A model generated the notes under the pieces. It had not been told where the DNA came from, did no database searches, and saw only the letters and a program-made list of their open reading frames with translations. Shown here one piece after another: positions 747 through 46,317 of a stretch of 64,000 bases of DNA. Position 1 is the first letter of the stretch. Every line of letters starts with the position of its first letter. This stretch comes from Escherichia phage ph0011, in the sequence record OP557969.1; one strand, written 5' to 3'. A program made the translations under genes and the position numbers.

Positions 747-862
747 TTATACCCTCCGTTGGAGCCTTGTTAATATGTATATATTTAGTTTAATTTAACT
801 GATATCCAATATTTTATAAAATAAAAAACCAGACTTATTTGAATAAGCCCGGTTTAATTTTA

Positions 863-1759: not shown

Positions 1760-1775
1760 TTTAATTTAATCTCCT

Positions 1776-5673: not shown

Positions 5674-6282
5674 ATGAAATTAGAAGCAGAACAACCAAAA
5701 CTATTTGTTAAAGGTCATGTCCTAATTACTGACGTTACTGATCCATCAAATCAAAAAATCGTTTTAGATAAATCTAACGCTATTCACCCAGAAAATATGA
5801 GTACTGCAATTGCTAATGCGTTAGCATACAATCAAGATAGTACCAGTATTCCTATTGGTTCAATTAGCGAAATGCGTTTTGGTAATGGTGGTACTGTAGT
5901 GTTAAGTACTGGGCGAGTCACGTACAAAAAACCACGCGTGACTTCCTTTGGTGGATTGTATTCACAAACATATTTAAAAAAAATCAACCCAAGAATTTCT
6001 GCTGGTATTGATTCACAGTATAATAACATCACAACAGTTCATATCCCAGGACAATCATATACTGATATTGTATGTATTTGTACACTTGGTTTAGGTGAAC
6101 CATCAGACCAAGGTGTAAGTTCAGGTACAAGTATGGATGGTACATATGTATTTGATGAATTGGGGTTATATACTGATGGTGATAGTGGTATTCCATTGAC
6201 ACATATCATTTTTCACCCAGTTGAGAAAAGTGCTAACCGTGTGTTACAAATTAAATACACAGTTCGTGTACAACTACAATAA
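5674..6282 (+). CDS. Hypothetical protein (202 aa)
   Basis: ATG 5674 with RBS AAGGA; tightly packed after previous stop; no recognisable motif. Confidence 0.5.
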   Translation: MKLEAEQPKLFVKGHVLITDVTDPSNQKIVLDKSNAIHPENMSTAIANALAYNQDSTSIPIGSISEMRFGNGGTVVLSTGRVTYKKPRVTSFGGLYSQTYLKKINPRISAGIDSQYNNITTVHIPGQSYTDIVCICTLGLGEPSDQGVSSGTSMDGTYVFDELGLYTDGDSGIPLTHIIFHPVEKSANRVLQIKYTVRVQLQ

Positions 6283-6294
6283 TGGGGTCAAATT

Positions 6295-7395
6295 ATGAGT
6301 GTAAGTTATACAATTTATAGAAGCAATGGTAGTGTTTATGCTACCATTCCAAATAATGTCATATTGGGGCCAAACCAACCAGGAAGTAACCCAGTTCCGT
6401 TGAATTTCGTCGGAAGAAATAAAGTAAGTTATGGACAAGCATGGAATGAAAACTTTTTACATTTAGTTGAGAATTTTAGTTCGGCTTCAGCACCACGCGG
6501 TAATGTGAACGGTCAACTATGGTACAGAAATGCTGGCAGTACTGGTGAATTATTGATATCATTGGTTGACAATGCTAGACAACCATCAGATGTTGTGAGT
6601 GAAGCTGAGTGGGCGTCTATTCCAATGATTTCTGTGTTTAATACCGTACCAGATGGTGAAAATAGTGTTATGGGTCGTATGGTATTAACCAGTAATGGTG
6701 ACTCACTTCGTGTATTAATGAAAAATAAAGAATGGCGTGAAATTCAAACATCACGCCCTGAGAATAAAGAATATACATCATTATTGGATATTAACTATGA
6801 TAATGGTAAAAAATATATTGAGTTTACACAAAATAATAGTACCAAGCCACTAGCATATTTTAACTTAGGAGGAACGTCACAAGTCGATACTAACAACTGG
6901 ACAACAGTAACTAACGGAACTGGTGTTTTTGAATTTGGTAGTAACTATTTCTATGAATTAAAAATTATGATTAGAGAGGTAAGCGATTCAACAGGTGAAA
7001 TTGTATCAGTTCCACATAATTCAAAAACATTTTTAATCAAAGGTCAATTTTATGTAGATAACCAAGGTACGTTTGTCCCTGGTTCTGTGGGTGCAAGTCA
7101 AATGCCAGACCCCCGCAGGATTACACATCTAGAAACCATTAAAGATGTCATTACCAGTAGTCGCCCGAACTGGGATGTGAACATGGTTATCAATGATGTA
7201 GATCCATCACTACCTAATCCAAACGGCACATCTAAAGCAGATTATGAAAACTGGGTTATTAACTCATTGAACTCTAATAAAAACTTGGGATTTAGAGTTG
7301 ATGGTAGTATTAGCAATCTTGCACCAGGTGAATCTGTGAAATTACAAGCATCAGTGTTGTTAAACATTACAGGTATTCCAATTATTGGTGTATAA
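6295..7395 (+). CDS. Hypothetical protein (366 aa), possibly virion or fiber-associated
   Basis: ATG 6295; G/N/S/T-rich composition similar to the fiber proteins; followed by bidirectional terminator. Confidence 0.45.
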   Translation: MSVSYTIYRSNGSVYATIPNNVILGPNQPGSNPVPLNFVGRNKVSYGQAWNENFLHLVENFSSASAPRGNVNGQLWYRNAGSTGELLISLVDNARQPSDVVSEAEWASIPMISVFNTVPDGENSVMGRMVLTSNGDSLRVLMKNKEWREIQTSRPENKEYTSLLDINYDNGKKYIEFTQNNSTKPLAYFNLGGTSQVDTNNWTTVTNGTGVFEFGSNYFYELKIMIREVSDSTGEIVSVPHNSKTFLIKGQFYVDNQGTFVPGSVGASQMPDPRRITHLETIKDVITSSRPNWDVNMVINDVDPSLPNPNGTSKADYENWVINSLNSNKNLGFRVDGSISNLAPGESVKLQASVLLNITGIPIIGV

Positions 7396-10839: not shown

Positions 10840-13128
10840 ATGAATCTTACTCAATTGTTCAAAAAAAGCGACGAACTAGCAACATCCCTAGGTCATACTT
10901 TCTTGACTATTGACCATGTGAGTGCTACAGTACTGACTATTGATAGTATCAAGGGCGTGTTCGAAGAAATGAACATCGATGCTGACAAATTGCATAGTCG
11001 ACTGATGAACTATCTTAAAAATACAACGGTTCCAAGTGCACCAAAAAGTACACTCGATGAAGATGCTAATCGCACTTCACTTCTGGTGAACCGTGTTGTA
11101 CATGAGCTTTCGAAAAAATCAGTCATTGAACAACTAAAAAGTGATGATTTTTCGATTGATGCATATTTTGTTCTATTTGAATGTTTATCATTCCCAAACA
11201 CTGCACTTGAAGCTGCTTTGAAAGAAGAAGGCGTTAGCTGTACCGAAGCTGCTCGTGCACTACAGAAACACGTTGAGGCACTGGAAAAGGGTATCAACCT
11301 TCAAAGTATCAATGACGAACCTACTGGAGATAAAAAAGTGGCTCAACCACAGCAATCATCTAAACAAAAAGGTTTAGCAGACTATACAACAAACCTAACG
11401 GCACTTGCAAAAGAAGGCAAACTAGACCCAATGATTGGTCGCCAAAAAGAGCTATCTGCATTGATTGAGACTCTTGCTCGCAAAACCAAAAAGAATGCCA
11501 TCCTGACTGGTGAAGCTGGTGTTGGTAAAACACAAATCATCGACGGTCTTGCACAAGCAATTGCTGATGGTAATGTACCAGAGCACTTAAAAGATGTTGA
11601 AATTCTTTCCCTAAATGTTGGTGCGTTGACTGCTGGGACTAAGTATCGTGGTGAATTTGAGGAACGTATCGATAATTTACTAAAAGAACTAAAGAAACGT
11701 GAAAACACAATTGTTTTCATTGATGAAATCCATATTATGGTCGGAGCAGGTTCTGCAAGCAACGGTTCAATGGACATGAGCAATATGCTTAAACCAGCAC
11801 TATCACGTGGTGAGATTCGTGTAATTGGTGCAACAACATACGAAGAATATCGTAAAAACATCGAGAAAGATAGTGCATTGACTCGTCGTTTTATGAAAAT
11901 TGATGTTGTTGAACCGTCAATCGATGAAACTCGTGAAATTGTGAACGGTCTTAAATCAACTTATGAAAAATTCCATAACGTTGAGTTTACAAAAGATGCA
12001 ATGGATGCAGTAATTTCTCTCAGTGAGAAGTTCTTGAAAAATAAACACTTCCCAGATAAAGCAATTGACCTAATGGATGCTGCTGCTGCGAAAGTGCGTT
12101 CACGTGATAATAATAGTAAACTAATTACAGAGAATTTGATTCAAGAAGTTGTTGCTGGTATTGCTAACTTGGATATCAACGTGGTTGCATGTACAGAAAG
12201 TGAACGTATGCGTAATCTACCAGATGCACTACGTTCACGTGTTTACGGACAAGAAGAAGCGATTCAAAAATTGGTTGATAATGTAATGGTTGCTCGTGCT
12301 GGTCTACGTGATAAGTCGAGTGTTCAGGGTGCTTTTATGTTTGTTGGTCCGTCAGGTACTGGTAAAACAGAAATTACAAAAGCATTAGCTGAAGCAACGG
12401 GTTCAGAGCTTGTTCGTTTTGATATGTCTGAGTTTTCTCAAGAACATACTGTTTCAAAACTAATTGGTTCCCCTCCAGGTTATGTTGGTCACGATTCTGG
12501 TAATGGTTTGCTATTGGATAAGATTGAGCAGTTTCCTAATGCCATTCTACTACTCGATGAAATCGAGAAAGCAGATCGTAAAGTACTACTAACCTTCCTA
12601 CAGGTTCTGGACGAAGGACGTTTGACTGGCTCACAAGGTAAAACTGTTTACTTCAATAACGTAACTGTTATTATGACAACCAACCTTGGTGCGGCTGATT
12701 CAACAAAGCGTAGTATTGGGATGAGTGGTAGTGAAAGTGCACAAGACAAGGCAATTAAAGCATTCTTACCACCAGAATTCATTAACCGTATTGACAGTAT
12801 TGTTACGTTTAATGAACTAAGTAGTGAAGCAATTGACAGTATCATTGATAAATTCATGGGAAGTTTGAATGAACAAGTTAAACATCGCAACGTAAAAGTT
12901 TCACTAACGAAAGCTGCACGTGGATGGCTTGCAAAAAATGGTGTTCAGGTAGGTATGGGTGCACGACCAATGAAACGTACAATTGAACAAAACATTCGCG
13001 TACCACTAGCGAAGGAAATGTTGTGTGGTTCACTGGTAAATGGTGGTAACATTACATTTGATGTTATCAATGACAAACTTGGTATTAAACCAAAACGTAC
13101 TAAAGCAGTTGAAAAAACACTAGCTTAA
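10840..13128 (+). CDS. ClpA/ClpB-family AAA+ unfoldase (two-ATPase-domain Hsp100, 762 aa)
   Basis: D1 Walker A GEAGVGKT and Walker B IVFIDEIH; D2 Walker A GPSGTGKTE and Walker B LLLDEIEKA; GYVGHDSGNGLL; SIGM tripeptide loop where ClpA carries its ClpP-docking IGL loop; ClpA-like length. Confidence 0.9.
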   Translation: MNLTQLFKKSDELATSLGHTFLTIDHVSATVLTIDSIKGVFEEMNIDADKLHSRLMNYLKNTTVPSAPKSTLDEDANRTSLLVNRVVHELSKKSVIEQLKSDDFSIDAYFVLFECLSFPNTALEAALKEEGVSCTEAARALQKHVEALEKGINLQSINDEPTGDKKVAQPQQSSKQKGLADYTTNLTALAKEGKLDPMIGRQKELSALIETLARKTKKNAILTGEAGVGKTQIIDGLAQAIADGNVPEHLKDVEILSLNVGALTAGTKYRGEFEERIDNLLKELKKRENTIVFIDEIHIMVGAGSASNGSMDMSNMLKPALSRGEIRVIGATTYEEYRKNIEKDSALTRRFMKIDVVEPSIDETREIVNGLKSTYEKFHNVEFTKDAMDAVISLSEKFLKNKHFPDKAIDLMDAAAAKVRSRDNNSKLITENLIQEVVAGIANLDINVVACTESERMRNLPDALRSRVYGQEEAIQKLVDNVMVARAGLRDKSSVQGAFMFVGPSGTGKTEITKALAEATGSELVRFDMSEFSQEHTVSKLIGSPPGYVGHDSGNGLLLDKIEQFPNAILLLDEIEKADRKVLLTFLQVLDEGRLTGSQGKTVYFNNVTVIMTTNLGAADSTKRSIGMSGSESAQDKAIKAFLPPEFINRIDSIVTFNELSSEAIDSIIDKFMGSLNEQVKHRNVKVSLTKAARGWLAKNGVQVGMGARPMKRTIEQNIRVPLAKEMLCGSLVNGGNITFDVINDKLGIKPKRTKAVEKTLA

Positions 13129-13136
13129 AAAACAAA

Positions 13137-13162
13137 AGGAGAGCATTTTGCTCTCCTTTTTT
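13137..13162. terminator. Bidirectional intrinsic terminator between ClpA-like gene and giant ORF
   Basis: Stem AGGAGAGC/GCTCTCCT, loop ATTTT, flanked by A-run and T-run. Confidence 0.8.
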
Positions 13163-13163
13163 A

Positions 13164-16100
13164 TTACTTAACTATTAATATTTTTTGAATATCATTACCA
13201 CGAACTCGTAGACTGTTAGTATACACAGAAAGGTCTATTGTATAACTATTTTGAGTATAACGTTTAAACTTATCATAACCGCCCAAATTAATTCCGTTGA
13301 AAGAATATGTAGTATCATGTTTGAAATCGTGTTCTGCACTGTACATTACTCCACGGAGTAAGTTGTTTGTATTTCTAACTTCAACTTTTTCATATCCAAT
13401 CGATATAATGTCACTCTTGTTAGCAGCGGAGCCTGATAACACATTATTTCTAACATTATAATGGCTTACGGAAAGAGGTTGTGCTACATAAGTTGTGTTT
13501 TCTTCACTAATGGTTGTTATGTTAGTGATGGTAGCGTCAGCCACATCAATATACATACTATCAACCATTGGATATTCATACACCCACACACCTTCATTAT
13601 TTTTTGTCGGTTTGATATCTTTCGCATCATATTCAATCACGTTAATTTCTAAACAATCCGGCATTTTAGTTCTTACTAATTCACTAAGAACACCTTCCCC
13701 TGTAATTGGTAGATTATAACCGTTGTCTATAGTAATACCATCATCATTAAATATTTCATTTGATACAACCCAAACATCAACATCATCAGGTGTTACTCCG
13801 TCATTATACTTACCACCATTTAAAGTAGTATCATAAAAAACGTCATAATTAATCACATCAATGGTGTAATTTCTGTTTTGCTCATATAATTTAATATCAC
13901 CCTTGGTAAATTCTGGGTCAGCAAATGTTCTAACACGAACAATGTTCAATGCAAGATGTTGTACTGGCTGATTCAGTTGTCCAAGTGTGATGTTATCATA
14001 TCGAAGAACATTACCAGAACTATCAACCAACTCAATCGTTTCTTTTCCTGTAGTTCTTACAGTGAATAGAATAGGAGTTGTATTATGTTTGATATTAGAC
14101 ACACGTAATATGGTTTCCCATGTACGATTTTGATATCGAATAAAATCTTCACCATCCGGTGTGAAAATCATCACCTTATCACCATCAGATAAGTCACTGT
14201 CAACGATTTCAGCCTCAGTTAAGCTATTAATAGAACGTACACGATAGAAATATTTTTCTTCAAACGGTGATGCCGTTTTATTAATATCATGTTCAATCTT
14301 AGCATATGAAGGAATACTAACAATTGCTTCTGTATGTTTATATGGGTTGATAATTGCCATACCCTCGGTTTTATATCTGCTATTATTACGCAATTGCACT
14401 AGTGATTCAGTATCAAATCCATAACCATCAACAGTGAATCTAATATGCCCAACTGCACGACTAGCTGGATTTATTTCAGATATATCGATAATATAAGGAT
14501 CAACTTCATCATCTTTAACTTCCCATTTGATAGCTGAAGTTTGTGATTCTAATGCAAGGTTGTCAAATGCATTCATATCATTGAAGAACTTAGCTTCAGC
14601 AATACTATCAATTATATATTGATAATCCGAATACATAGGGTTATTTTGATCTTGTGGTAAATCATCTAGATTTATTTCAGCAAGTTTAATCATTTCACCA
14701 TTAGTAATGAAATAATCTTCCATGAAATCATCAATACTTTTATCATCTGGTATACTTTGGTATTCACCATTGATATTTAAGTAGACATGTTTTCTTGGCA
14801 TCATAGTAATAGCATAGATATCAATAGGTGTTTTTGAAAGAATTTCTTCTGCTTTTTCATACATATCAGCAGAGTCTTTATCAAACAACCCTCTCATGGC
14901 TGCCAGTACATGGACCGCATCGGAATAGAAACGTGTATCACCACCAATTTCATCATAACGATAAACATATACACCGTATTCAACTTCAAGTTTCACTTTA
15001 ATATCATGTTCAGATGCATCTGGATATTTTTCTGTAATAAAAGAAATATATTTTTCATATAATTCTTTACTTATTTCAAAATATCCATAGTTATAATCAT
15101 TACTTGAAGAAAAACCTAATGGTAGTCTAGTACTTGGGTTATCATTATAAACCAAACCACTAAATCCACAGCCAACCTCATCATGAATCTTATCATCACT
15201 GATATCTTTATAAAGTTTCAAACGGTTTGCTAATGTATTGTACTGAACATAGTGTCGAAGGTCAGTAAACATTTCATTATGCGTTGATTCGTTATAAATG
15301 CGTTCAAGTGTAGCAGTAAATTCATCAGTTGCTTCTAAATCATCAGCATGTTCTTTATACCACTGGTTTACACCATTTGCAGTTCCTAGTGTTACATCTA
15401 ATTCTGGATAGTACGTTTGTAATAGATACGCATTAACCAAGTCAAATGATTGTTCATTATACACAGGGTAAGAATATATATAACGTTGTAATTCATAGGT
15501 ATTAACAGAATCTTTTTCATTTGATTGATACTTATTATTAACACTAATCAACTCATTAATGTTTGCCAAATCTTTATTCGGTTTACATTGAATATTATCA
15601 TAATGCATAATAATATCAATTTCTTGAAATCTTCTATTTGGTGCAATAAAATCACTAGGCAGAGAACCTACTTTCTCCCATTTTTTAGTGGTTTCATTAT
15701 ATTGAGCGTACTCATAATCCCAAATATCCTTTTCAGTTTTAACCCACGAACCATCAACAAAAATATACCCATTAGGATCTAAATCATTACAAAGACCTTT
15801 GATTAAGTCATCATCAGACGTTTTTTGTTCTATCTGTGAACGGATTTTTGTACGATATGGTTTCACCTCTTCAAAGTACTCAACAATTTGGTTAATCAAA
15901 TTATCATTTGAATAGTTTTGTACCAAAGATTGTTCCAAACCAACAATATAGATATAGGATGTTTTAAATACCCAATCAACAACACCCTGTTCTACGTGTA
16001 CATATTTGACCATATCAAAAACAATTTCACTTTGGTGTAAATCGAAAGAATTTTTTAGCAAAGCAAGTGCTTTTCTAATATTAATTTCACGATTACTAAG

Positions 16101-19100
16101 TGAACCGTCCTCATTATGAACATTATAATCTACATAAAACAAATCGTTAAGCTCAATAGTACTACGTTGTCGCCCAATAGCTTTCCAATAAATTGAATCA
16201 CGTGATTGAGATTTGATATATAAAGTCCAAATGTTTTCACTATCTGTGACTCTAATTATATCACCAACTTGATAGTTTTTAGCATTTGCTTCTTCTAAAC
16301 TTATCTCTTGGATGTAAGCAGTTTTGCTATCATACCCAACATCATACCAATCTGCATAAGACCAGTATTGAGTCATATCTAATGATGTTCCGAGTGATTC
16401 AACATAATCCGATTGCTTAATCATTTTATGTTGTCCTTCACCTTTATTTTCTAAAGTTATAGTAACAACACTACCTGCATTAGCTGGACTATTCATTAAC
16501 TGAATATATCCGTTTTCATCGAAGTGAATAAAATAAACAGCACTAGTTGATAATGGAGTCGGTAGATAACCGCTAGAACTTAAAATAACAGCGTCATTTT
16601 CTTTAAATTTATCCTTTTCAACTGCAATTACAAGTTCATTATTATAAGTTAATACACGGAACGAAACCTCATTAGGGTTAACTTCTGTAGTTTTAACATT
16701 AAACACATCTTCCATAACAACACTATTAGTAGTTATGTTTTGTGATCTATAATAATTATTTGCACTTTCTACAAAGTTTCTACGTGCCTCTATTATATTC
16801 TGGAACCAAGTTTTATTAGAGCCTAAACCAGTGTCAACTTCTGGATATAATAAATCTACAACCTTACCTGACTTCGTAGTTTCTTGACCAATTAGAGAGT
16901 TCCACATAGAGTCCCAAATTAGTGGGTTAAAGTTGTAACTTTCACCCTCTTTGCAAAGTTGATATTGGTCATGTTTAACAACTTCTGTATTGTCCATATA
17001 GTAAGAAATAGTCAAAACACTAGTATCATCATTAACTTCAAACTGCATATTACTAAGAATAAAAGAGTTTTCATTAATTGGTGCGAACCAAGGAATGTTC
17101 AACTGTGATGGATCTTTAATAATACGTGCAATGTCAGTACATGATTTTGTTCTGGTATGAATAGGTGGTACATAAATTGTATCACGTACCCAGAAATAGT
17201 ATTTTGTTACATAACTGTCAGTGGAGCTATCATATTCCAAAAATGTACTATAATTATCTTCAAGTGCTGTTCCACTTGGAAGATACATATTATTATTTTT
17301 GTTTTTCTTAGCAACATCTTTACAGTACTTATCCCAGTTATATGGTTCTACTGGTGAACAAACCCATTCCAACACATCAATAGTACTATGTGGCAACAAA
17401 CGACCCCAGTTGTAACGTTTATATTCATTGGTTGCGTCAATATCAACATTTCCATCTGCATCATAAATGGCACGAGTATAATCCAAATAAAAAGCGGTGC
17501 TAGTGTTCCACCATACTTGACCAACTTTTTCAGCACCCCACGCCTGAACCAATTCGCCATTGCTATTATATTGAGCAGGGTCGATTGGTGAAGTATATGT
17601 TACGTTTTGCATTGCTGCACCAGGAATAACACCATTAATTGGGTCATAAACATTTAGATATAATGCAGTAATGTTTGTACGTTCATCATATGTAGTTGGA
17701 CGTTCAAACAAAGTACTTTGTGGTGCTTTAAAACTATATTTTTTATCAATATATGCTTGACGCTCTTCAGTACTCACAAAACGCGAAACATAACGATACA
17801 AACGAGGGCGTGTATCTGGGTCAGTAAATTCGATATTAATTGAAGTATCAAATGGAACCACCATAACTTTGGAATCATCCCCAGCAGTATAATATTGACT
17901 TTCTACTGTTAAAGTATCTGGCATAAAGTTAGTTTCGTCCACAAAATAATAGTAATCACCATCTTCAAGAGGGATATCATCAGATAGAGTTACTTTACAG
18001 AATTTCTCAGCGTAAACATCTGTGGTTTCGATTGGTGTAATAGAAACCATTTTAACATTAGTGTCAATTAATTCAAAAATGTTCCATAACCCATTTCCAT
18101 CTTTGAACATCCATACTGATTCAGGATTTTCACCTTTACCATTGATATACAACATACGGTCATTGAATGCAGTACTGAAATCTTTCGTAGTATAAGATAC
18201 TTCATCTAATGTAACTGGACCAATATCAGGCAGTTGGATGTGTTCACTTCTACCACTACGCATTGGGAAAGAGAATTTACCATTTGGACGAGTAATCCAT
18301 TGTGGGTCTTTTCCTTGTTCACCAAAGAATACAATATTGTTTCCATTACCATTTGATGTTGCATTTTCATCAAAAGACATCATTTGTGGCTGCTGCTTAA
18401 ATTGGTCATTAATCAATTTAAATTGAAGGTTTTTCTTTCCATCGATGTTACCATATGTACCAACTTTAAACGCCCATTCTTGTAATGCTTTATATTCATC
18501 AGTATCATAGGATTTAGAAACACGAAGAACACGTTCTAAAACTTGGTTTGTACCTTTGTCATGAATAAATCCTTTATAGAAATCAACACGACTTACATCA
18601 CTACTAATCATACGTTGTAGATAATCACGAGATTGATAACCAATCAAATGGCTAGACAATTCTTGTAATTGTACATCGCTAACGGGATGTTCATTGTCAT
18701 AGTAATGTTGAAAATCTGTTACTAGAGTTTCAAATGATGGTATTGTACCAGATTCCAAAATAATAAAACCAGGTGCTTGTAATCTACCAGTCCATGAACC
18801 AGTAATGTACCCATACATTTTAATTAGTTCCTGGATAGAACCATAAGTTGGTTGATAGATATAATCACCAAAAATAGTCTTATCATCAAATATAACAGCA
18901 TGTTCATATGAACACAAACTTAAGCGGATTAATGCAATACGCTTATTAGAATCGGTTGTTCTAACAGTGAATATATTACCAATACGTGAAGTTTCGATTT
19001 CATATTGACGAATACCTTGGTTATTATCATCAAGCAATGACCACACACCACCATTATTTTGTGTAATAGACTGTACTGAACCAAAATCCGAACCAAACTT

Positions 19101-22100
19101 AGCATTTGCAGCACTTGGTGTACAAGAGATAAATTCGCCAGTTACCAGAGGACTCTGACTCCATATCACAAAATCTTTAGCAATAGTGTGCCAATCTTGC
19201 TGAATACCATCTTGATTAACATCTTCGAAAATCCAGCCATGTTCTTTAAGATACTCACCATATCCACAAATAAAAGTGTATACTTCTTGATAACTATTGA
19301 AAATAGTCCCATATTCAATAGAAGCCTCAGACTTCCATTCATTATAATGAACAATATTACGGTTTTCCAATTTAAGAGTTACTTTTCTTCCATTTTTTAC
19401 TGGAAGTTTATATTTAAATTTCGCACCAACCAAATCATATCCATCAATTTGATATGCACTACCATTCCATGTAATTTTGATGGCACTCATCTGTTCATCG
19501 CGAATGTTATTCGAACGCACCAGACCAATCGTTTGGTTTTCTTGTGAAATAAGACCAAATGATTTAGCGTTGAATGTTAATTGATCTGCTTTAGTAAAGC
19601 CACCAATTTTATGTCCCACATTTACGTAAGACGAACGTACAACATCTCCATATTTTGTAGTAATATTTTTATTTTGATACATCAAATAATCACTAACAAA
19701 CATTTGATATCCAATTGTTCTTGTGTTATCTTCACCATGAACAGTTGTGTTTTTATCAAAATTCACACGATTGCGGGTATCCCCGTACAGAAATTGTTCA
19801 CCAGTGGTGATAATTTCTTTCAAATTGTCATTACGGGTATCCCAATAATAGTTGGCAAATTGTGCAGGTTTAGCTTTATACAAAAGTAACATTTGGTCAT
19901 ATGCAAACAATGTGGTGTTCATATACGTAAATTCCATATCACCCATGTCGCCATACGCCCAAGGTTCTGCTCGGTGAACTAAAGATCCAGACACTAATCC
20001 TAAAACTTCAGGAGCAATATACTCAACCACACAAATATCTACACCGGATGATGTTTTATTTCCAGTTTTAGTAATTTTAAATGGTTGTACACCAAATCTT
20101 TTATATTTGTCATACTGACCACGGCGGTCGCCATATAAAATTGTCCCAGTACTACTATCGCCGATTGTATCATTTACATCCCAAAGTCCACTAGGAACCA
20201 AATCACCTTGTTCATCAGTTACAAGTGCCTCATATACATAAACTACATCACCATCACGTTCACCAACTTGGACAGCGGTTGGTTCATACTCTTGGTTCCA
20301 CCAAGTAGGACGTTGTGTAAACCCAAACATTTCCCATGGATGTGTAGCAGGGCGATATGTACCATATTGATCAGTATAGATTGCACGCCATGAACCACGA
20401 GCAGGAATTTCAGTACTTTTACCATCAACAACATAATAGGTTCCAGTATAGTTCCATGTTCTCCAGTTATTAGGATCATAATCATGTGTACTATTACTAA
20501 TACCATTAGATGCAGTGAAGTTAATATAACCACGTAATAGAAGTGTTTGTTTTTCTTCTGCACTATATTCAGTTTTTGTAAAATATGGTGTAGGGAAAAG
20601 ATCATCACTATTCAATACAGGGACATAATCAACATCTTTGAATTTATTGTCAATACTATTGAAAATTCTATTTTCAAGTTCATATACAACATCATCCATT
20701 TTATCAACACCATTGATAACACGGTATGCTTTAGAAATAATACCAGTATGGCTGATATTATAATAGCTAGGTTTACTACCAGCAGTTAGGAATGTTGCTT
20801 TCTCAGGAACGTATGCTTGTAGAATACCTAAAAACTGTGGAGTTGGTGGTATAAATGCACGAATAAGACCAGATGTACTACCCACATTGTCATAATAGAA
20901 TGGGAATGAACTATCACGACCCATATTAATAGTTGCCAAAATAGAATCAACGATGTTAGCTGCACTATTTTGTAAAAAGTTAGTTGGGTTTTCATTGTAC
21001 ATTCTAAGCATTTGTGTATTAAATTTATTAATGAATCTGAAATATTCAGATTGCATAAACATAGTTGCTTCAAATAAATCAATATCTTCATTTGCAGTAT
21101 GAGCCATCAATGGGAGCATAGAAGCTTCATTTTGAATAATTTTAGTTCCTACTCCATTATTCACTAATCCCTTAGCTAAACGTTCTTCATAATCGTTGAA
21201 GTCATCAGCATAACCACTAGTGATATTCTGTTGAATAATATCCTGAAAATGAAGAGTATAGTCTCCTTGATTAATATATATAATATTGGAGTTATATGGG
21301 TTATTTTGTAAGTTAATTGGAACTTCATATGCACCTAATTCTTTATCAGGTGTTACAGTACTGCTATAAGTTCTAATTTGAATAACAGAATCATCATCCA
21401 ATTCAACACTGTTATCGATTGTGATACTTTGCACTTGACCTTTTAATACATTCTTGGTATATTTGGAGATATTAACACCATCAACAACAACTTCAATAAT
21501 ATCAGAGTCATTGTCTAAAACTTTTTGTGCCAATTCAAAAGTATGGTCATATTTTAAAACCTGAATACCATCACCACTAATTTGATGCCAGTCCAAATAT
21601 GTTTCACGTTCAGCTTTATAGTACTGATATGTTTTATCAACTTCGATGACATATGCATACATACCCTCGACTGGTTCTTTAAACAGTTCCATATCATAAA
21701 CAGAACTAAAGACTCGATACATATCAGTACGTTTGACTTGAGGTGTCTGTTTTACAAATTGTTTAGAGAATTCTTTTGAACGCACCCAATCAGTTTGAAG
21801 ATTCATTTTATTATTTTCATCAATGATGTTATAATAATACAAACCACCGATTTCAACTTCAACACCAAGATGGTCATATGTATAACGTTGTGATTGTAAA
21901 AAGTTTTCATAAGTGTAATAGTTATAATCACCAAGTTCAATGTTATACCCATATACACTATCAGCCGCGTAGTTATAGTTGATTTTAAATCCAAATAATG
22001 GTGAACCTTTAAATGTACTGGATGGGTACGTGGTGCTGTTATCTAGTTTGATTCCATTACGATCATAAAGTTGGAATTGAGGAAAGACGTTAACACTTGG

Positions 22101-23165
22101 CTTCGCCTGTGCACGAACCCATAATGTTCCATTCCAATACATAGAATTATTGCCGTACTCATTTCCTTTTGTGACCAAAACTACGTCACCATTTTGTGGT
22201 TCACCACTTGGACGGGACTCAGTTTCTTCATTTGGATCTAGTGCTAAGCCATAAACGCGTGTACCATCTTGCATTTTTTTAACATACACTTTATAAATTC
22301 TATTGTTTTCACCATCATTACCAATACTGGTGAATAGAATACGCATACCATCTTGTGGAATAATACCATCAATGCGAATACCGCTATTGACATCTTTTTG
22401 AATAATATCTTCAGGTTTGATACTATCAGAAAAAAGTTCAACTGTTCCACGGAATTTTGTACCGTAGTTAATTAGCTCGATATTTTTATTATATTCGATA
22501 ATTGGTGCACGAGCACGAATAAAACGAGAATCTTGCATTAGCTCTTCAGTCAAGATAGAACCGTCTTCTAGTGTTTCACCTAAAGTATACCAAAAGTTTT
22601 GCAAAGACCATGTATTACCATTAAGTGCTCCACGTTCCATTACAATGTAATCAGGTGTAATGATATTATAAGAGTTTTTGGTATCCCAAAGATACGAACT
22701 AAAATTGTTCATTTTATTTGGGTTAATTGCAGGAGTCCATGCATAAAACTTACCGTTAAATAAACGACTTTCATTATCGGTTAGTGCTCCGTAATGACTC
22801 ATGTATCCAACAAGATCATCATAAAATTGAATTGAACGAATTGTTGAATCATCATTTTTAGAGACATAAGCAGTGGACAACTGATATAGTTGACGTGCAA
22901 CAGAACTTTCATGCAAGAAGATATTACCAGCGGCAGCCGGAGAACCCATGTCACCAATATAACCGTCAACCAATTCGTTTTCAGCCGGATTAAACCATTG
23001 TTGAATAACATCATCACTGACTTTTTGAATATCTTCTAAGCCTTGCATCCACTCAGGCAATCTTTTGATAAAAAGCTTTTTCTGTACTGCTTCAGCCATC
23101 TGTGTAGGTTGAAACTTAAAATTATTAGTCATTTTTTCTGGACTCCATATAATTCGTTCATTCAT
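13164..23165 (-). CDS. Giant virion structural protein (3,333 aa), likely fused baseplate-wedge/fiber protein
   Basis: Uninterrupted 10-kb ORF with ATG 23163-23165; Y/N/D/T-rich; sits in the slot between gp6-like and neck genes where T4 has gp7-gp12/wac; own terminators on both sides. Confidence 0.6.
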   Translation of the reverse strand: MNERIIWSPEKMTNNFKFQPTQMAEAVQKKLFIKRLPEWMQGLEDIQKVSDDVIQQWFNPAENELVDGYIGDMGSPAAAGNIFLHESSVARQLYQLSTAYVSKNDDSTIRSIQFYDDLVGYMSHYGALTDNESRLFNGKFYAWTPAINPNKMNNFSSYLWDTKNSYNIITPDYIVMERGALNGNTWSLQNFWYTLGETLEDGSILTEELMQDSRFIRARAPIIEYNKNIELINYGTKFRGTVELFSDSIKPEDIIQKDVNSGIRIDGIIPQDGMRILFTSIGNDGENNRIYKVYVKKMQDGTRVYGLALDPNEETESRPSGEPQNGDVVLVTKGNEYGNNSMYWNGTLWVRAQAKPSVNVFPQFQLYDRNGIKLDNSTTYPSSTFKGSPLFGFKINYNYAADSVYGYNIELGDYNYYTYENFLQSQRYTYDHLGVEVEIGGLYYYNIIDENNKMNLQTDWVRSKEFSKQFVKQTPQVKRTDMYRVFSSVYDMELFKEPVEGMYAYVIEVDKTYQYYKAERETYLDWHQISGDGIQVLKYDHTFELAQKVLDNDSDIIEVVVDGVNISKYTKNVLKGQVQSITIDNSVELDDDSVIQIRTYSSTVTPDKELGAYEVPINLQNNPYNSNIIYINQGDYTLHFQDIIQQNITSGYADDFNDYEERLAKGLVNNGVGTKIIQNEASMLPLMAHTANEDIDLFEATMFMQSEYFRFINKFNTQMLRMYNENPTNFLQNSAANIVDSILATINMGRDSSFPFYYDNVGSTSGLIRAFIPPTPQFLGILQAYVPEKATFLTAGSKPSYYNISHTGIISKAYRVINGVDKMDDVVYELENRIFNSIDNKFKDVDYVPVLNSDDLFPTPYFTKTEYSAEEKQTLLLRGYINFTASNGISNSTHDYDPNNWRTWNYTGTYYVVDGKSTEIPARGSWRAIYTDQYGTYRPATHPWEMFGFTQRPTWWNQEYEPTAVQVGERDGDVVYVYEALVTDEQGDLVPSGLWDVNDTIGDSSTGTILYGDRRGQYDKYKRFGVQPFKITKTGNKTSSGVDICVVEYIAPEVLGLVSGSLVHRAEPWAYGDMGDMEFTYMNTTLFAYDQMLLLYKAKPAQFANYYWDTRNDNLKEIITTGEQFLYGDTRNRVNFDKNTTVHGEDNTRTIGYQMFVSDYLMYQNKNITTKYGDVVRSSYVNVGHKIGGFTKADQLTFNAKSFGLISQENQTIGLVRSNNIRDEQMSAIKITWNGSAYQIDGYDLVGAKFKYKLPVKNGRKVTLKLENRNIVHYNEWKSEASIEYGTIFNSYQEVYTFICGYGEYLKEHGWIFEDVNQDGIQQDWHTIAKDFVIWSQSPLVTGEFISCTPSAANAKFGSDFGSVQSITQNNGGVWSLLDDNNQGIRQYEIETSRIGNIFTVRTTDSNKRIALIRLSLCSYEHAVIFDDKTIFGDYIYQPTYGSIQELIKMYGYITGSWTGRLQAPGFIILESGTIPSFETLVTDFQHYYDNEHPVSDVQLQELSSHLIGYQSRDYLQRMISSDVSRVDFYKGFIHDKGTNQVLERVLRVSKSYDTDEYKALQEWAFKVGTYGNIDGKKNLQFKLINDQFKQQPQMMSFDENATSNGNGNNIVFFGEQGKDPQWITRPNGKFSFPMRSGRSEHIQLPDIGPVTLDEVSYTTKDFSTAFNDRMLYINGKGENPESVWMFKDGNGLWNIFELIDTNVKMVSITPIETTDVYAEKFCKVTLSDDIPLEDGDYYYFVDETNFMPDTLTVESQYYTAGDDSKVMVVPFDTSINIEFTDPDTRPRLYRYVSRFVSTEERQAYIDKKYSFKAPQSTLFERPTTYDERTNITALYLNVYDPINGVIPGAAMQNVTYTSPIDPAQYNSNGELVQAWGAEKVGQVWWNTSTAFYLDYTRAIYDADGNVDIDATNEYKRYNWGRLLPHSTIDVLEWVCSPVEPYNWDKYCKDVAKKNKNNNMYLPSGTALEDNYSTFLEYDSSTDSYVTKYYFWVRDTIYVPPIHTRTKSCTDIARIIKDPSQLNIPWFAPINENSFILSNMQFEVNDDTSVLTISYYMDNTEVVKHDQYQLCKEGESYNFNPLIWDSMWNSLIGQETTKSGKVVDLLYPEVDTGLGSNKTWFQNIIEARRNFVESANNYYRSQNITTNSVVMEDVFNVKTTEVNPNEVSFRVLTYNNELVIAVEKDKFKENDAVILSSSGYLPTPLSTSAVYFIHFDENGYIQLMNSPANAGSVVTITLENKGEGQHKMIKQSDYVESLGTSLDMTQYWSYADWYDVGYDSKTAYIQEISLEEANAKNYQVGDIIRVTDSENIWTLYIKSQSRDSIYWKAIGRQRSTIELNDLFYVDYNVHNEDGSLSNREINIRKALALLKNSFDLHQSEIVFDMVKYVHVEQGVVDWVFKTSYIYIVGLEQSLVQNYSNDNLINQIVEYFEEVKPYRTKIRSQIEQKTSDDDLIKGLCNDLDPNGYIFVDGSWVKTEKDIWDYEYAQYNETTKKWEKVGSLPSDFIAPNRRFQEIDIIMHYDNIQCKPNKDLANINELISVNNKYQSNEKDSVNTYELQRYIYSYPVYNEQSFDLVNAYLLQTYYPELDVTLGTANGVNQWYKEHADDLEATDEFTATLERIYNESTHNEMFTDLRHYVQYNTLANRLKLYKDISDDKIHDEVGCGFSGLVYNDNPSTRLPLGFSSSNDYNYGYFEISKELYEKYISFITEKYPDASEHDIKVKLEVEYGVYVYRYDEIGGDTRFYSDAVHVLAAMRGLFDKDSADMYEKAEEILSKTPIDIYAITMMPRKHVYLNINGEYQSIPDDKSIDDFMEDYFITNGEMIKLAEINLDDLPQDQNNPMYSDYQYIIDSIAEAKFFNDMNAFDNLALESQTSAIKWEVKDDEVDPYIIDISEINPASRAVGHIRFTVDGYGFDTESLVQLRNNSRYKTEGMAIINPYKHTEAIVSIPSYAKIEHDINKTASPFEEKYFYRVRSINSLTEAEIVDSDLSDGDKVMIFTPDGEDFIRYQNRTWETILRVSNIKHNTTPILFTVRTTGKETIELVDSSGNVLRYDNITLGQLNQPVQHLALNIVRVRTFADPEFTKGDIKLYEQNRNYTIDVINYDVFYDTTLNGGKYNDGVTPDDVDVWVVSNEIFNDDGITIDNGYNLPITGEGVLSELVRTKMPDCLEINVIEYDAKDIKPTKNNEGVWVYEYPMVDSMYIDVADATITNITTISEENTTYVAQPLSVSHYNVRNNVLSGSAANKSDIISIGYEKVEVRNTNNLLRGVMYSAEHDFKHDTTYSFNGINLGGYDKFKRYTQNSYTIDLSVYTNSLRVRGNDIQKILIVK

Positions 23166-23183
23166 TTGATTTATTTATTAGAT

Positions 23184-23207
23184 AAAAAAGGCGTTCCGAA
23201 GAACGCC
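23184..23207 (-). terminator. Intrinsic terminator (minus strand) between 1,153-aa baseplate gene and giant ORF
   Basis: Stem GGCGTTC/GAACGCC with CGAA tetraloop, followed by T-run on the minus strand. Confidence 0.7.
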
Positions 23208-23214
23208 GATATTA

Positions 23215-26200
23215 TTAAGAACCGATATTAATATTACTTTTAGCTAATGAGTTAACTATTTGAACATTTTCAACCGATGCAGTACTCAAGAATATTTGGT
23301 CCGAGCGTGAAGGTATTTCAAACAAAGAACCAAATTTGGAATTCGGATTTTGTGCAACTATAACAATTGTACTAATATGTCTTCCTAGTTGGGAATGTAT
23401 ATAAGTACATAAATCGGTATAATAGAAACTTTCACCAAAATCCCAGTTATCAACATTAAAATATTCATTCGTTAATGCTATCACATTTTGACGAATTTCA
23501 TCATCACTCATCGTGCTATTTGGTAGCTTAACAACTTTAAAATCAGCTTTATAATCTTCCGCAGCACTGTTCCCAAATAATGGTAGATACTCTGCACTAT
23601 GCCAGATAATACTATCACTGATGACTATTTTTTGTTCGACATCTTTGAACATATTTTTCAATTCAACTGATGTTGGAGGCTTCGGCATACTTCCAACTGC
23701 ATTATTTTTTAACCACACATCAACTTCAGTTTTGTATGAGTTTGTTAGTACATACATATCAATTAGGTTTGTTCTACTAGGATCAATACGGTTATCATCA
23801 GGTGCATAATGTTTCCAATGGAAATCTATACTGGTACGAGCATTCGTCTTAACCGTATATTGCGATGTAACATCTTTATAACCATAATAATCCAACTTCT
23901 GATTCTCATCAGCATTAGTACCCATGTTATTAATTGAACGATAAAACGCAAGTTCAGGACTAATAGTTCCGGTATCATCGGAATATGTCAAATTACTGAT
24001 TAATTGCCCCAAACGATCATTGTTATTACCAACAGTTTGTTCAATAAAATAATATTTACCATCATATTTAAAACACACTAAGAATCCAGAGCCTTTACTA
24101 TACAATCCACTCAATGTGTTAGAACGAATTGCATTATTTCGTACAAATTCGGTTCTTTTATATGTATTAGGTTCAGCTAATGCTTGTTCCATCGTATAAG
24201 ACCATGACGTATCCAGTAGTGAGAATGTATCATTTGGTAATGACAGTACTGAAATTGTAAAATCATTATTTTCCTTGAATATCAATATACCACCGTATTT
24301 TAATGCATCAGAACCTGACCATTCTGGAACAATATCTTTAAATTGATTCGGTTCCAATGGTATACCATTACTATCTACTTTTCTAGAGGTGACAATAATA
24401 CGAGAACCATCCAGATATCCATTTTCTTGCTGTATTGTGTCATAAATTTGAAAATCTATATTACTTGTTAGACCTGAGTTACTTGTGCTTGTTGTGTTGG
24501 ATGATAAAATTTCAATTTTATCACTTTGAACTGTACCAGAACTAATATCAGTTATTTTTTTGGATGAAACGAAATAGAATTTGACTTTATTACCACCAAC
24601 AAATATATATTCAATACCATTTGCATCAAATTCCCAGGTTTCTGCTGTATATTTAACGTTTATTACAACTAAAACTTCGTGACCATTGTAAACAATAGTA
24701 TCATCATTTGTACTAATTTCTACTGGAACCCATGAAGTTGTTTCTTTATCATGAACAATAACAAAATCAGTTTTTTTATCAAGCATTGCAGAAATAGACT
24801 GAACCTCAACCGAATCAAATCTTGTTCTATATGGTAATATATAATCAATTGCTTGCATTTTACTAGAAACTGGCGTACTTAATACATAAAACCCATTATC
24901 TAAAACACTAATAACACTTGCCCATATAGTTGTTGTAGAGTTGGAGAACTTAATTAAAGTGCCAACCTGATACGAATTATATACTGTCCCAGATGATCCC
25001 ATGATTCTTCCATATGTATTGGTAGTATAATTCGAATTATAAACAGGTGTCCATGATTGTTGAAGTTCAATTCCAATAGTATTTGGTGGATATGCTTGAT
25101 AACGTTGTATCACAGCATTTTCACCAATTAGTGGTTGAATATTGTCAATTACGATACTGGCATTTGTTTTTGTAGTTGGTAGTAATAAAGATTTATTAAA
25201 TTTAGTATTTTCTTTATATAATGCACCATCATCACTAAAAACATCAGTATTTTGATATTTTCCAGTAGGGTCATTAATATCAATGAATCGAGACTGTCCA
25301 CTATAAATTCTATTAATAGCTTTTGACTTAAGTACAGTGTTACCTAAACTGAGTGGAGCAATATTATAATCTTCACCATTAACAAAACGGTTTTGTGTGT
25401 AATACATTTGTGGTGCTCGTGCTTTAATTTGCTCAATAGTCTCAGCACTTTGTGCACGATCTGATTCGTATTGTAATGAAAAGCGTACATCTAGTGTGCT
25501 TGATTCATAACTGGATTGTGTTTTAGTACGATACGTATATTTTACACTTTTATTTTGAATTTCTGACGTTTTGATGTTATATGTTTTACCATTACTAACA
25601 CGATACCACACACGGAATGTACCACGCGGAACAACACCACTTCTGGAATCTGGATATTTAATTGTTATTTGATCTTTATCACGAGTTGTAACTGCAAAAA
25701 TTGTTTTAAGCTGGCGATTGACCGTGTTGTATGCAATACTTTCCATGGATGGAACTTTTGTCCATTTGGTACGAACAATACCATCTTCATTGATTTCTTG
25801 TACCCAAACATCAGTTTCATTTATGTTATCAACGTTTACCTCTTGTATTCTATTTTCTTCACGAATATTATATTGGTAATCTTGATATGTCAATGTTCCT
25901 TGGATAAAATACACAAAAAAACCAGTATTTGGTGAACTGAATCCATTACCATCATTTTGGTACACAATATATTTTTGCTCTTGTGGTTCTGGATGTCTCT
26001 CTTCAACACCAACAGATGTAATGTCAGGGTTAACCACTTCAAATGTCATTGATTCACCATTAACAGTTGCAACAAATGGTATACTTGGAGCACTCATAGG
26101 AATAGTATTCATTCGATAAAGCTGACGTGACACCCCATTGACATCAATACGTTTAACTGGATTACCGAACTGATTAGTACTAACAAATGAACTATTCATA

Positions 26201-26676
26201 ACAAGAATAAAGTTTTCATACCAATTCGCATCCATTGGGTCGTTCCAACGAATAATTTTATCTTTTAATGATTCATTAAAACTATTACGAACATCTTGGT
26301 TTGTTTTAATTTCTGTTAATTTTGCTACTGCACGACCTGGATATGAGCGACGTGGTGTATACGAAATCATTTTGGCTAATTTTAGAACCGATGCACGGCG
26401 TGTAGCAGTATCTAAGAAGTTTTCACGCGTGTTCAAATCCATACGAAATGCCAAGTTCTGACCCAGCATTGAAATGGTATCAAGAATAAAAATAAACTGA
26501 TCGTTTTCAATCCAGTCATTAAATGAATCAGGATACGTTTGACGCAAATAATCAATCATACTCTGGCGAATAGTATCAAAGTCAAATGCCGTGAGATTGA
26601 TTTTATAAAAACTTTCATATACTTGTGTCCAATCTTCACCACTATATAAATTTGATTGCCTTTTTTGTTGTGACAT
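23215..26676 (-). CDS. Baseplate wedge protein, gp6/J-like by position (1,153 aa)
   Basis: ATG 26674-26676 with RBS AAGGA; directly downstream of the gp25-like gene, as in the conserved W-J baseplate order; no motif verified. Confidence 0.4.
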   Translation of the reverse strand: MSQQKRQSNLYSGEDWTQVYESFYKINLTAFDFDTIRQSMIDYLRQTYPDSFNDWIENDQFIFILDTISMLGQNLAFRMDLNTRENFLDTATRRASVLKLAKMISYTPRRSYPGRAVAKLTEIKTNQDVRNSFNESLKDKIIRWNDPMDANWYENFILVMNSSFVSTNQFGNPVKRIDVNGVSRQLYRMNTIPMSAPSIPFVATVNGESMTFEVVNPDITSVGVEERHPEPQEQKYIVYQNDGNGFSSPNTGFFVYFIQGTLTYQDYQYNIREENRIQEVNVDNINETDVWVQEINEDGIVRTKWTKVPSMESIAYNTVNRQLKTIFAVTTRDKDQITIKYPDSRSGVVPRGTFRVWYRVSNGKTYNIKTSEIQNKSVKYTYRTKTQSSYESSTLDVRFSLQYESDRAQSAETIEQIKARAPQMYYTQNRFVNGEDYNIAPLSLGNTVLKSKAINRIYSGQSRFIDINDPTGKYQNTDVFSDDGALYKENTKFNKSLLLPTTKTNASIVIDNIQPLIGENAVIQRYQAYPPNTIGIELQQSWTPVYNSNYTTNTYGRIMGSSGTVYNSYQVGTLIKFSNSTTTIWASVISVLDNGFYVLSTPVSSKMQAIDYILPYRTRFDSVEVQSISAMLDKKTDFVIVHDKETTSWVPVEISTNDDTIVYNGHEVLVVINVKYTAETWEFDANGIEYIFVGGNKVKFYFVSSKKITDISSGTVQSDKIEILSSNTTSTSNSGLTSNIDFQIYDTIQQENGYLDGSRIIVTSRKVDSNGIPLEPNQFKDIVPEWSGSDALKYGGILIFKENNDFTISVLSLPNDTFSLLDTSWSYTMEQALAEPNTYKRTEFVRNNAIRSNTLSGLYSKGSGFLVCFKYDGKYYFIEQTVGNNNDRLGQLISNLTYSDDTGTISPELAFYRSINNMGTNADENQKLDYYGYKDVTSQYTVKTNARTSIDFHWKHYAPDDNRIDPSRTNLIDMYVLTNSYKTEVDVWLKNNAVGSMPKPPTSVELKNMFKDVEQKIVISDSIIWHSAEYLPLFGNSAAEDYKADFKVVKLPNSTMSDDEIRQNVIALTNEYFNVDNWDFGESFYYTDLCTYIHSQLGRHISTIVIVAQNPNSKFGSLFEIPSRSDQIFLSTASVENVQIVNSLAKSNINIGS

Positions 26677-26743
26677 AATTTATTCCTTTAAATCAGTAAA
26701 GTACTAGTTCAGTACTGGGAATTATATAGAAATATTTATTCAA

Positions 26744-26773
26744 AAAGAAAAGCACCCCGAAGAGTGCTTTTTT
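26744..26773. terminator. Intrinsic terminator hairpin downstream of gp25-like gene
   Basis: Stem AAGCAC/GTGCTT with loop CCCGAAGA, A-run and T-run on either side. Confidence 0.6.
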
Positions 26774-26778
26774 AATAT

Positions 26779-27174
26779 CTACAAAGACGATACTGAATAT
26801 GTTGCCATTCTATTATTACTTCTTGCATCAAATACAATAGAAAGTTCCTCTACAGTATTCAATACTACATAATGCAATACTATGTTCATTTGATATCCAT
26901 ATTCTATCCTTGAAATTTGTATTTTTTTAAGATTCAAACGTGGATCTAAAGAAATAATCCTTCTGGCATCTGCTTCCAAAAGGTTCATAGTATTATAACC
27001 TTCCAATTCAAACAACAAATCCCATGCAATAAAACCATAGTCTGCATCAAATGCCCTTTCGCCTTTTTTTGTATTGAAATGGTTCATTAAATCCTGACGA
27101 ACCAGTTCAGTATCGTACAATGTTTCCGTTCTACCCACAACTGGTGTGGAGAAACCTTTAAAAACAACTGCCAT
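26779..27174 (-). CDS. gp25: Baseplate wedge protein, gp25/GPW family (131 aa)
   Basis: KGERAFDADYGFIAWDLLFELEG matches the gp25 pattern G.R.FDP.FG..L.D.LFE; size typical; RBS AAGGA. Confidence 0.7.
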   Translation of the reverse strand: MAVVFKGFSTPVVGRTETLYDTELVRQDLMNHFNTKKGERAFDADYGFIAWDLLFELEGYNTMNLLEADARRIISLDPRLNLKKIQISRIEYGYQMNIVLHYVVLNTVEELSIVFDARSNNRMATYSVSSL

Positions 27175-27187: not shown

Positions 27188-27676
27188 TTATACGGATTCG
27201 ACGATTCGTGCCATCTTTTCCGCTCTAGAAGTGGTTTGTTTATACCAGGTACTATCACGCAATTCTTTACCAGCAGTTTTATAATCAGCATTACCCAATG
27301 CGGTCATTGCTTTTTTAAATTTCAAAACTTTGGCTTTGCCCATTTGGAACACCATCATCCACAAAACACGCTGTACTTGTACTGGTGCAGTCATGCCAAA
27401 TTGCTCATAAATTGATTTTGCGTCATTGTACGCGGCCTGAGCATCTTTAATAAGAAGTTGTTCAGCTTGTTCTTCAGTTAAGCCATTTTTGAAGTTTTCA
27501 CCAGGAAGAACTAAATGACCATAACCAATAGTATCAAGTCCCAAGCTATCTTTATATACCCAAAACTTATCATTTTTAAAATAACCAAGTTTTTTCTGAT
27601 AAGCAATAGTTCCTTCAAATTCTTTGATTTCATTAAAAAATTGCTCATCTGTATTTTTAATTTCCCATTTACTCAT
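27188..27676 (-). CDS. T4-type lysozyme (GH24), free-standing, probable endolysin (162 aa)
   Basis: Catalytic-triad context EFEG...KDSLG...DTIGYGH, plus MVFQMG and W..QT..RA blocks typical of T4 lysozyme; RBS AAGGA. Confidence 0.85.
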   Translation of the reverse strand: MSKWEIKNTDEQFFNEIKEFEGTIAYQKKLGYFKNDKFWVYKDSLGLDTIGYGHLVLPGENFKNGLTEEQAEQLLIKDAQAAYNDAKSIYEQFGMTAPVQVQRVLWMMVFQMGKAKVLKFKKAMTALGNADYKTAGKELRDSTWYKQTTSRAEKMARIVESV

Positions 27677-27692: not shown

Positions 27693-27700
27693 TATTTATA
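27693..27700 (-). promoter_or_regulatory. T4-late-promoter-like TATAAATA (minus strand) upstream of lysozyme gene
   Basis: Exact TATAAATA on minus strand, 17 nt upstream of the lysozyme ATG; gp55 homolog encoded in window. Confidence 0.35.
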
Positions 27701-46309: not shown

Positions 46310-46317
46310 TATAAATA
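46310..46317 (+). promoter_or_regulatory. T4-late-promoter-like TATAAATA upstream of scaffold gene
   Basis: Exact TATAAATA, 47 nt upstream of ATG 46365; same TAAATATCTG context recurs at 45652. Confidence 0.4.

Follow-up and report, generated by a model that had tools for sequence, protein, structure and literature searches.

The closest described relatives of the gene considered here belong to the PHROG family phrog_10938, labelled "virion structural protein", and no publication that we found assigns a function to the giant protein. Its members from phages phAPEC6 (gp245, 381.88 kDa) and CBB (CBB_236) were found in purified virions by mass spectrometry (MS), with 17 and 21 peptides, respectively. 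Otherwise, in the CBB study "the largest gene" served solely to anchor genome drawings of Rak2-like phages, and gp128 of PA5oct, encoded beside wedge genes, was singled out solely for being among that phage's two largest proteins. We analyzed a 64,000-nucleotide (nt) stretch of Escherichia phage ph0011 (OP557969.1; the whole stretch is called the window below), where a giant open reading frame (ORF) at 13164..23165 on the minus strand encodes a protein matching phrog_10938 over its full length (E = 0, 5595 bits, residues 12–3330 against profile positions 1–3324 of 3324). The gene has the same neighbors and the same length as its relatives (121Q gp582, phAPEC6 gp245, CBB_236, and the RaK2, GAP32, and PA5oct homologs), and we see no essential difference from them; it is a new allele of an already catalogued family that has neither an assigned function nor a solved or recognizable structure. 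The designation of the product as a virion protein in a first-pass annotation, made from the sequence alone, is supported by the MS data on the two orthologs.

The second group of systems suitable for comparison comprises T4 gp7, P2 gpI, Mu gp48, and TssG of the type VI secretion system. Like their genes, the giant gene directly follows gp25-like and gp6-like genes, and the order around it (gp25–gp6–X) is the same as W–J–I in P2. Since this is the W–J–I order of contractile systems, the giant protein is the positional equivalent of gp7/gpI/TssG. It is likewise large, lineage-variable and, as we propose, peripheral. It exceeds gp7 in size threefold and gpI 19-fold, and no similarity to either was detected in sequence, profile, or fold. 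The wedge's gp7-like portion has been described as an evolutionary re-engineering hot-spot that contacts tail fibers (PMC8894135).

On balance, we favor, with moderate confidence, a reading in which the giant protein, a non-repetitive, multi-domain structural chain of ~380 kDa, serves a RaK2/121Q-type jumbo myovirus as the main scaffold of the baseplate periphery. This reading is supported by the operon context, synteny, MS data on orthologs, the ratio of non-synonymous to synonymous substitution rates (dN/dS), and by the fact that no other ORF in the window matches gp7–gp12; it also fits the hot-spot view of the gp7-like part (PMC8894135). Accepting this reading, we infer that the protein resides in the baseplate, binds the gp6-like protein, is present in six copies per virion, and has a scaffolding or fiber-docking role.

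Coding evidence and distribution of the family

The longest open frame comprises 3333 codons and a stop, starts with ATG and spans 10,002 nt, or 15.6% of the window, in agreement with the single uninterrupted ORF covering 16% reported initially. With a stop probability of 0.080 per codon, calculated from base composition, 3333 stop-free codons would be expected with a probability of ~1e-120, and the other five frames of the same interval contain 142–587 stops. The GC content at the three codon positions (GC1>GC2>GC3) follows the same pattern uniformly over the length of the ORF. Compared with phage 121Q, dN/dS is 0.03–0.13 in each 300-codon interval, and thus constraint acts on the protein from end to end; the ORF is a genuine gene.

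Megablast assigns the window to a jumbo coliphage of the 121Q/PBECO4 type (Asteriusvirus-like), and the gene is a single 10,002-nt frame in ~30 related phage genomes. The closest nucleotide match is phage UE-S1 (89.5% nucleotide identity; the best amino acid identity is 91%), and nucleotide identity to Asteriusvirus genomes is 87–89%. In three Salmonella phage records from one study (OR699183.1, OR699181.1, OR699182.1) the ortholog is given as 3–4 abutting or overlapping coding sequences (CDSs), e.g., 9,978 nt vs. 10,002. As a sister record of the same study is intact, these splits are probably frameshifting assembly indels or errors.

The initial description did not state the strand, which is minus, and its length of 3,333 amino acids is that of the longest frame. 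The true start is probably codon 12, the ATG at 23132, 11 codons further in, yielding a CDS at 13164..23132 (minus strand) and a product of 3,322 residues plus stop that begins with MTNNFKFQ. Several observations point to this codon: a Shine–Dalgarno-like GGAG (23143..23146, minus strand) lies 10 nt 5' of it; distant homologs and the PHROG model start to align at residue 12 of the 3333-residue frame; and the 121Q ortholog is annotated from the equivalent ATG, with a 3-nt indel in 121Q between the Shine–Dalgarno sequence and the ATG. Residues below are numbered in the 3333-residue frame.

We found 59 full-length homologs with 44–91% identity, and a protein search yielded 192 relatives of 3,100–5,750 residues on contigs of up to 430 kb. 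According to tblastn, the family is present in 88 cultured phage records, nearly all of them labelled "hypothetical" or "virion structural protein". These include phages of Escherichia, Salmonella, Klebsiella (RaK2), Cronobacter (GAP32), Pectobacterium (CBB), Erwinia, Yersinia, Serratia, Vibrio, Pseudomonas (PA5oct), Agrobacterium (Atu_ph07), Sinorhizobium (Phosso), and Salicola (SCTP-2). In this widespread group of 290–490-kb phages, the protein appears to be the largest gene product, taking up ~3% of the coding capacity, and several such phages are being studied as therapeutic agents against E. coli, Klebsiella, Pseudomonas, and pathogens of plants.

Gene neighborhood and comparison with known baseplate proteins

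The giant ORF is the last gene of a minus-strand operon encoding, in this order, a gp53-like protein, a 749-residue structural protein, a gp5-like hub/lysozyme, a second lysozyme, a gp25-like protein (26779..27174, assigned by a match to the GPW_gp25 domain), and a gp6-like wedge protein of 1153 residues (23215..26676). The latter is an ortholog of the DUF8360 proteins, matches phrog_219 via its N-terminus (E 3e-21), and is the invariable upstream neighbor of the giant gene: in five out of five distant contigs (24–30% identity), the DUF8360 (gp6-like) gene immediately precedes the giant gene, and in four out of five a gp25-like gene is found just upstream. In two of these contigs (L008, L009) the stop codon of the gp6-like gene overlaps the start codon of the giant gene (TAATG and TGATG), an arrangement consistent with the two products being stoichiometric partners whose translation is coupled.

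On the 3' side, the giant ORF is followed by an oppositely oriented gene for a ClpB-like AAA+ protein, a 501-residue structural gene, and a gp15-like gene. The first-pass annotation placed the ORF in the slot between the gp6-like wedge gene and the neck genes, where T4 carries gp7 and the genes that follow. The wedge side of this description stands, as the ORF adjoins the gp25-like and gp6-like genes, but on the neck side the ATPase gene and the 501-residue structural gene intervene before the gp15-like gene.

The same position would be expected of an extremely diverged true gp7 homolog, perhaps fused with gp8–gp12-like parts and carrying the core-bundle/trifurcation module in the unmodelled center of the protein. 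A fusion of gp7–gp12/wac had indeed been suggested at first, but single-sequence searches, the family hidden Markov model (HMM), hhalign, Pfam, and the fold search of residues 1–1200 and 2134–3333 all yielded no similarity, and we consider such an origin unlikely. The Pfam scan of the giant protein returned no family at E <= 1, including PF21428, PF21427, PF21456, and PF09684. The controls, T4 gp7 and P2 gpI, matched their own Pfam families, and all listed relatives of T4 gp7 carry Gp7_helical, Gp7_5th, and Gp7_6th, whereas the tiles of the giant protein with candidate regions matched nothing. The family HMM had no match among T4 gp5–gp12/wac, and in the reverse comparison of T4 proteins with all ORFs of the 64-kb window only the homologs of gp53 and gp5 were recovered, with gp7–gp12 unmatched; similarity to gp8–gp12 is nil. 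The fold search, performed, like the structure modelling, for residues 1–1200 and 2134–3333 (72% of the protein), likewise showed no gp7–gp12 fold among the listed hits.

What speaks for hidden homology, apart from the gene position, is a series of motifs. The segment 'IPSFETLVTDFQHYY ... HLIGYQSRDYL ... FYKGFIHDKGT' (residues 1474–1547, 18525..18746, minus strand), with invariant P1476, F1478, Y1530, G1532, I1534, K1537, and G1538, aligns in a focused hhalign comparison as 'lPNFEk ... DFY..KGT' collinearly with 'NFEkF ... DFYS-TKG' of gp7 (residues ~661–740), which overlaps the Pfam domain Gp7_helical (643–689). However, the hhalign probability for the giant and gp7 families is 0.1% at full length and 0.2% in the focused comparison, with P = 0.3, and in the full-length run the motif alignment falls below the top chance-level hit. 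The control comparison of gp7 with P2 gpI, which we take to be structural homologs, scores 0.15%. Thus, sequence methods are powerless at such divergence, and the negative sequence result is uninformative with respect to a gp7 homolog. Another candidate spotted by eye, 'MLP...FEAT' (residues 683–702), compared with the gp7 helical domain, was dropped, as nothing supported it.

Baseplate components of phiKZ (gp87/gp27, PDB 9xqs/9xqd) and the spokes of Goslar belong to another lineage (Chimalliviridae), whose baseplate peripheries consist of many separate proteins, and have no sequence relation to the giant protein.

Protein anatomy and the predicted scaffold

The giant protein is acidic throughout, with no internal repeats on self-comparison and no membrane segments. 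Its N-terminal arm (residues 12–95, 22881..23132; these and the following coordinates are on the minus strand), with invariant L36, P37, G68, G71, and R91, has low AlphaFold confidence as a monomer and is a candidate partner-binding segment. It is followed by a compact multi-domain body (residues 96–1200, 19566..22880) of beta-sandwiches and a helical region (residues 633–887), predicted confidently (predicted template modelling score, pTM, 0.79 for the N-terminal 1200 residues). The conserved core continues through residues 1201–2133 (16767..19565), where the family alignment reveals an insertion hot-spot (residues ~1700–1800) and a very conserved W-rich block (~1840–2000). The best-conserved block of the protein, residues 2370–2490 (15696..16058), is predicted to be helical, has a predicted local distance difference test score (pLDDT) of 25–37 as a monomer, and is a candidate inter-subunit interface. 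The acidic C-terminal region (residues 2461–3333, 13167..15785) contains several small, moderately confident domains; it is lineage-restricted and evolves under purifying selection.

When relatives are mapped on the query, the conserved core spans residues ~20–2460, with insertion hot-spots near residue 160 and at 470–560, 1700–1800, and 2140–2260, and the C-terminal ~870 residues are alignable only within the Rak2-like group. An exhaustive phmmer search with residues 2481–3333 (853 residues) against 1.84e9 representative proteins produced seven hits, two long ones being family members at the equivalent position and five being short fragments. A degenerate motif 'I.I..E.V.V.....LRG' near the C-terminus (residues 3254–3280, 13326..13406) is common with the distant members, which have a sharper form, 'PGVI.I..ERI.Y....GN.L..I.RGT.GT', 80–370 residues from their ends (P0072–P0120). 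In distant members, the 1700–1800 hot-spot harbors a GDSL esterase, the 2140–2260 hot-spot an RCC1 propeller, and the C-terminal regions Laminin_G_3, Gly_rich_2, and ILEI domains; precomputed Pfam assignments add CBM_5_12 and FG-GAP_2 in other members, at positions unmapped within the protein. The presence of such domains suggests that the giant protein is exposed at the periphery.

Taking this into account, the proposed scaffold could operate as follows. The protein would be produced from the baseplate operon, its gene being next after those for the gp25-like and gp6-like wedge proteins, and its conserved segments without a confident fold in isolation (residues 12–95, ~2370–2490, and possibly ~1470–1550) would dock, in all six wedges, on the gp6-like dimer, so that it takes the place of gp7 (functionally, gp7–gp11) in T4 or of gpI in P2. 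The conserved core (residues ~96–2460) would build the outer body of the baseplate, and surface loops together with the C-terminal region would serve as permissive sites, either for lineage-specific domains plausibly binding or modifying host surface sugars, or for fiber docking. If the protein is indeed located at the baseplate periphery, it would couple host recognition by branched fibers to sheath contraction and would be an obvious target for cryo-electron microscopy and for host-range engineering at the natural insertion sites.

Several points weigh against this reading. MS places the orthologs in the virion and not specifically in the baseplate; the interfaces are assigned indirectly, as segments that are conserved but have low pLDDT; residues 1201–2133, 28% of the protein, lie outside the structure models; the model of residues 2134–3333 is mediocre (pLDDT 67, pTM 0.31); and the 64-kb window leaves room for a small canonical gp7/gpI-type gene elsewhere in the genome. 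A more far-reaching version is put forward only tentatively: a single ~380-kDa chain, unrelated in sequence or detectable fold to gp7–gp12, may, in the largest clade of jumbo phages related to T4, make up the entire outer baseplate, its fixed insertion sites being a plug-in platform that receives host-binding or enzymatic domains (esterase, lectin, beta-propeller) depending on the lineage. If so, it would be an evolutionarily independent solution for the periphery of contractile tails.

Apart from a hidden gp7 homolog, the rival explanations considered were, in this order, an adhesin or whisker, a cryptic enzyme, and a tape measure. The lectin, carbohydrate-binding (CBM), and esterase domains of distant members, the faster evolution of the C-terminal third, and the unusual tail hairs and branched fibers of some relatives would all be natural if the giant protein itself were the primary adhesin, a tail fiber, or a whisker of "hairy" tails. 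We regard this as rather improbable, since the protein has no repeats, long helices, or convincing beta-helix, its N-terminal 1200 residues are predicted to be compact, and separate tail fiber and tailspike genes are located nearby. Moreover, dN/dS does not exceed 0.13 even in the C-terminal part, with no mosaicism or diversifying signal of the kind seen in receptor-binding tips, and both the length and the sequence have been retained in phages of such dissimilar hosts as Escherichia, Klebsiella, Erwinia, and Yersinia. Similarly, the notion of a fiber in the initial annotation is not supported, given the absence of repeats, the predicted compact N-terminal part, and the mixed alpha/beta composition; no convincing beta-helix, other known receptor-binding or depolymerase domain, or trimeric repetitive shaft was found in the protein. 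In its fold, the N-terminal model weakly resembles the anchor domains at the N-termini of phage fibers and tailspikes, namely, the N-terminal domain of T7 gp17 and residues 1–250 of CBA120 TSP4 (gp10-like domains), with matches that cover 75–110 of 1200 residues, fall short of conventional confidence, and have no sequence support.

The virion RNA polymerase (vRNAP) of phage N4 has ~3,500 residues, and the similar size of the giant protein is compatible with a cryptic enzyme (a depolymerase, a peptidase, or an N4-type vRNAP) or an ejected internal protein. The same is true for the 28% of the protein outside the models, for a few invariant polar residues (E1421–H1422, H806, H2065, D2397, K2401), and for the label D-alanyl-D-alanine carboxypeptidase given to the ortholog in one record (Escherichia phage EJP2, OQ411014.1). 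However, this label is probably a misannotation, no such domain being detectable in the family, and the gene resides in the baseplate operon rather than in a head or internal-protein module. Nothing was found when the entire protein was scanned for Pfam and NCBIfam families and for motifs, including HExxH, GxSxG, GDSL, P-loop, and CxxC, and PDB sequence searches, run with the protein sequence itself as well as with a profile of 16 family members, gave only noise (GCN5, E 0.14; ribosomal L18, E 0.68). No polymerase or hydrolase domains or motifs were recognized, the central 28% being covered by sequence searches only. We therefore consider an enzymatic role very improbable. These scans are consistent with the first-pass annotation, which saw no enzymatic motifs by eye, but its suggestion that depolymerase, peptidase, or polymerase domains may be hidden in the protein found no support over the same range. 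The family was already catalogued as a virion structural protein, and no hidden enzyme was found.

Finally, the largest gene of phiKZ, orf181, encodes a tape-measure protein with a lysozyme domain, and the giant gene is, judging from the choice of anchor in the CBB paper, also the largest of its phage. A tape-measure function is nevertheless hardly credible. The predicted secondary structure is mixed (25–29% helix, 22–25% strand, the longest helix being 29 residues), and as a helix, 3,322 residues would extend to ~498 nm, compared with tails of 123–136 nm in relatives. In addition, there is no lysozyme domain, and the gene follows the wedge genes and is not located beside the tube and sheath genes. 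Predicted secondary structure and the length mismatch effectively refute this explanation.

Flanking signals and neighboring genes

The giant gene is flanked by hairpins, evaluated by folding energy relative to shuffled sequences (z-scores). A GC-rich UUCG hairpin (23190–23207) with a U6 tract (together 23184..23207, minus strand; -12.3 kcal/mol, z -4.4) is a terminator or attenuator, its stem being identical in 121Q. Downstream, a bidirectional terminator with a 12-bp stem (13134..13160, both strands; z -4.0 on the minus and -7.1 on the plus strand) separates the giant ORF from the convergent ClpB-like gene and is retained in 121Q with a changed loop. Hence, the intrinsic terminators noted earlier at both ends are real (z -4.0 and -4.4) and conserved, but they are not dedicated to the giant gene: the upstream hairpin lies 5' of the giant ORF and terminates or attenuates transcription after the gp6-like gene, and the downstream one is shared with the ClpB-like gene.

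The sequence AATAAATA at 23172–23179 (minus strand), located after the upstream hairpin and before the giant ORF, is conserved in 121Q and matches the T4 late-promoter box TATAAATA except at one position. In its exact form, the TATAAATA box is not enriched in the window (six found vs. 9.95 expected); three copies of the late-promoter box are located just 5' of genes, the listed sites being 27693–27700 (minus), 46310–46317 (plus), and 47519–47526 (plus). A gene for a gp55-like late sigma factor is found at 33825–34664.

Downstream of the giant gene, distant contigs carry a pair of genes for proteins of ~200 and ~370–690 residues, directly in L003, L004, and L007 (in L003, with an additional 246-residue gene within the pair) and past a 49-residue ORF in L008 and L009. 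In the window, their homologs of 202 (5674–6282) and 366 residues (6295–7395), together 5674..7395 on the plus strand (E 1e-39 to 1e-54 and 6e-7 to 6e-15, respectively), are parted from the giant gene by an inverted block of the NUDIX, gp15-like, 501-residue, and ClpB-like genes. The 366-residue protein bears the label "virion structural protein"; Pfam and PDB searches with both proteins returned no match. Both are candidate partners of the giant protein.

The convergent ATPase gene (10840–13128, plus strand), lying within the tail/baseplate module, is of the ClpA/ClpB type with two AAA+ domains, and the same association is seen in the distant contig L004; speculatively, its product might be an assembly chaperone or unfoldase. 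In phage 121Q, an HNH homing endonuclease gene (L001, 10721–11485) is located between the gp25-like and gp6-like genes, where the window has a gap of ~100 nt (26677–26778). The gp5-like hub protein (27713–30376, minus strand; 887 residues) combines DUF2345 with a Phage_base_V OB domain and, at the C-terminus, a phage lysozyme, and matches Peptidase_M23 weakly; its gene is followed by the separate 162-residue lysozyme gene (27188–27676). A 713-residue "colanic acid degradation" protein is encoded at 1776–3917 (minus strand) and shows a weak pectate-lyase-like match as well as matches to tailspike and tail fiber PHROGs. As this tailspike-type gene is close to the baseplate module, the depolymerase function seems to be encoded apart from the giant protein.

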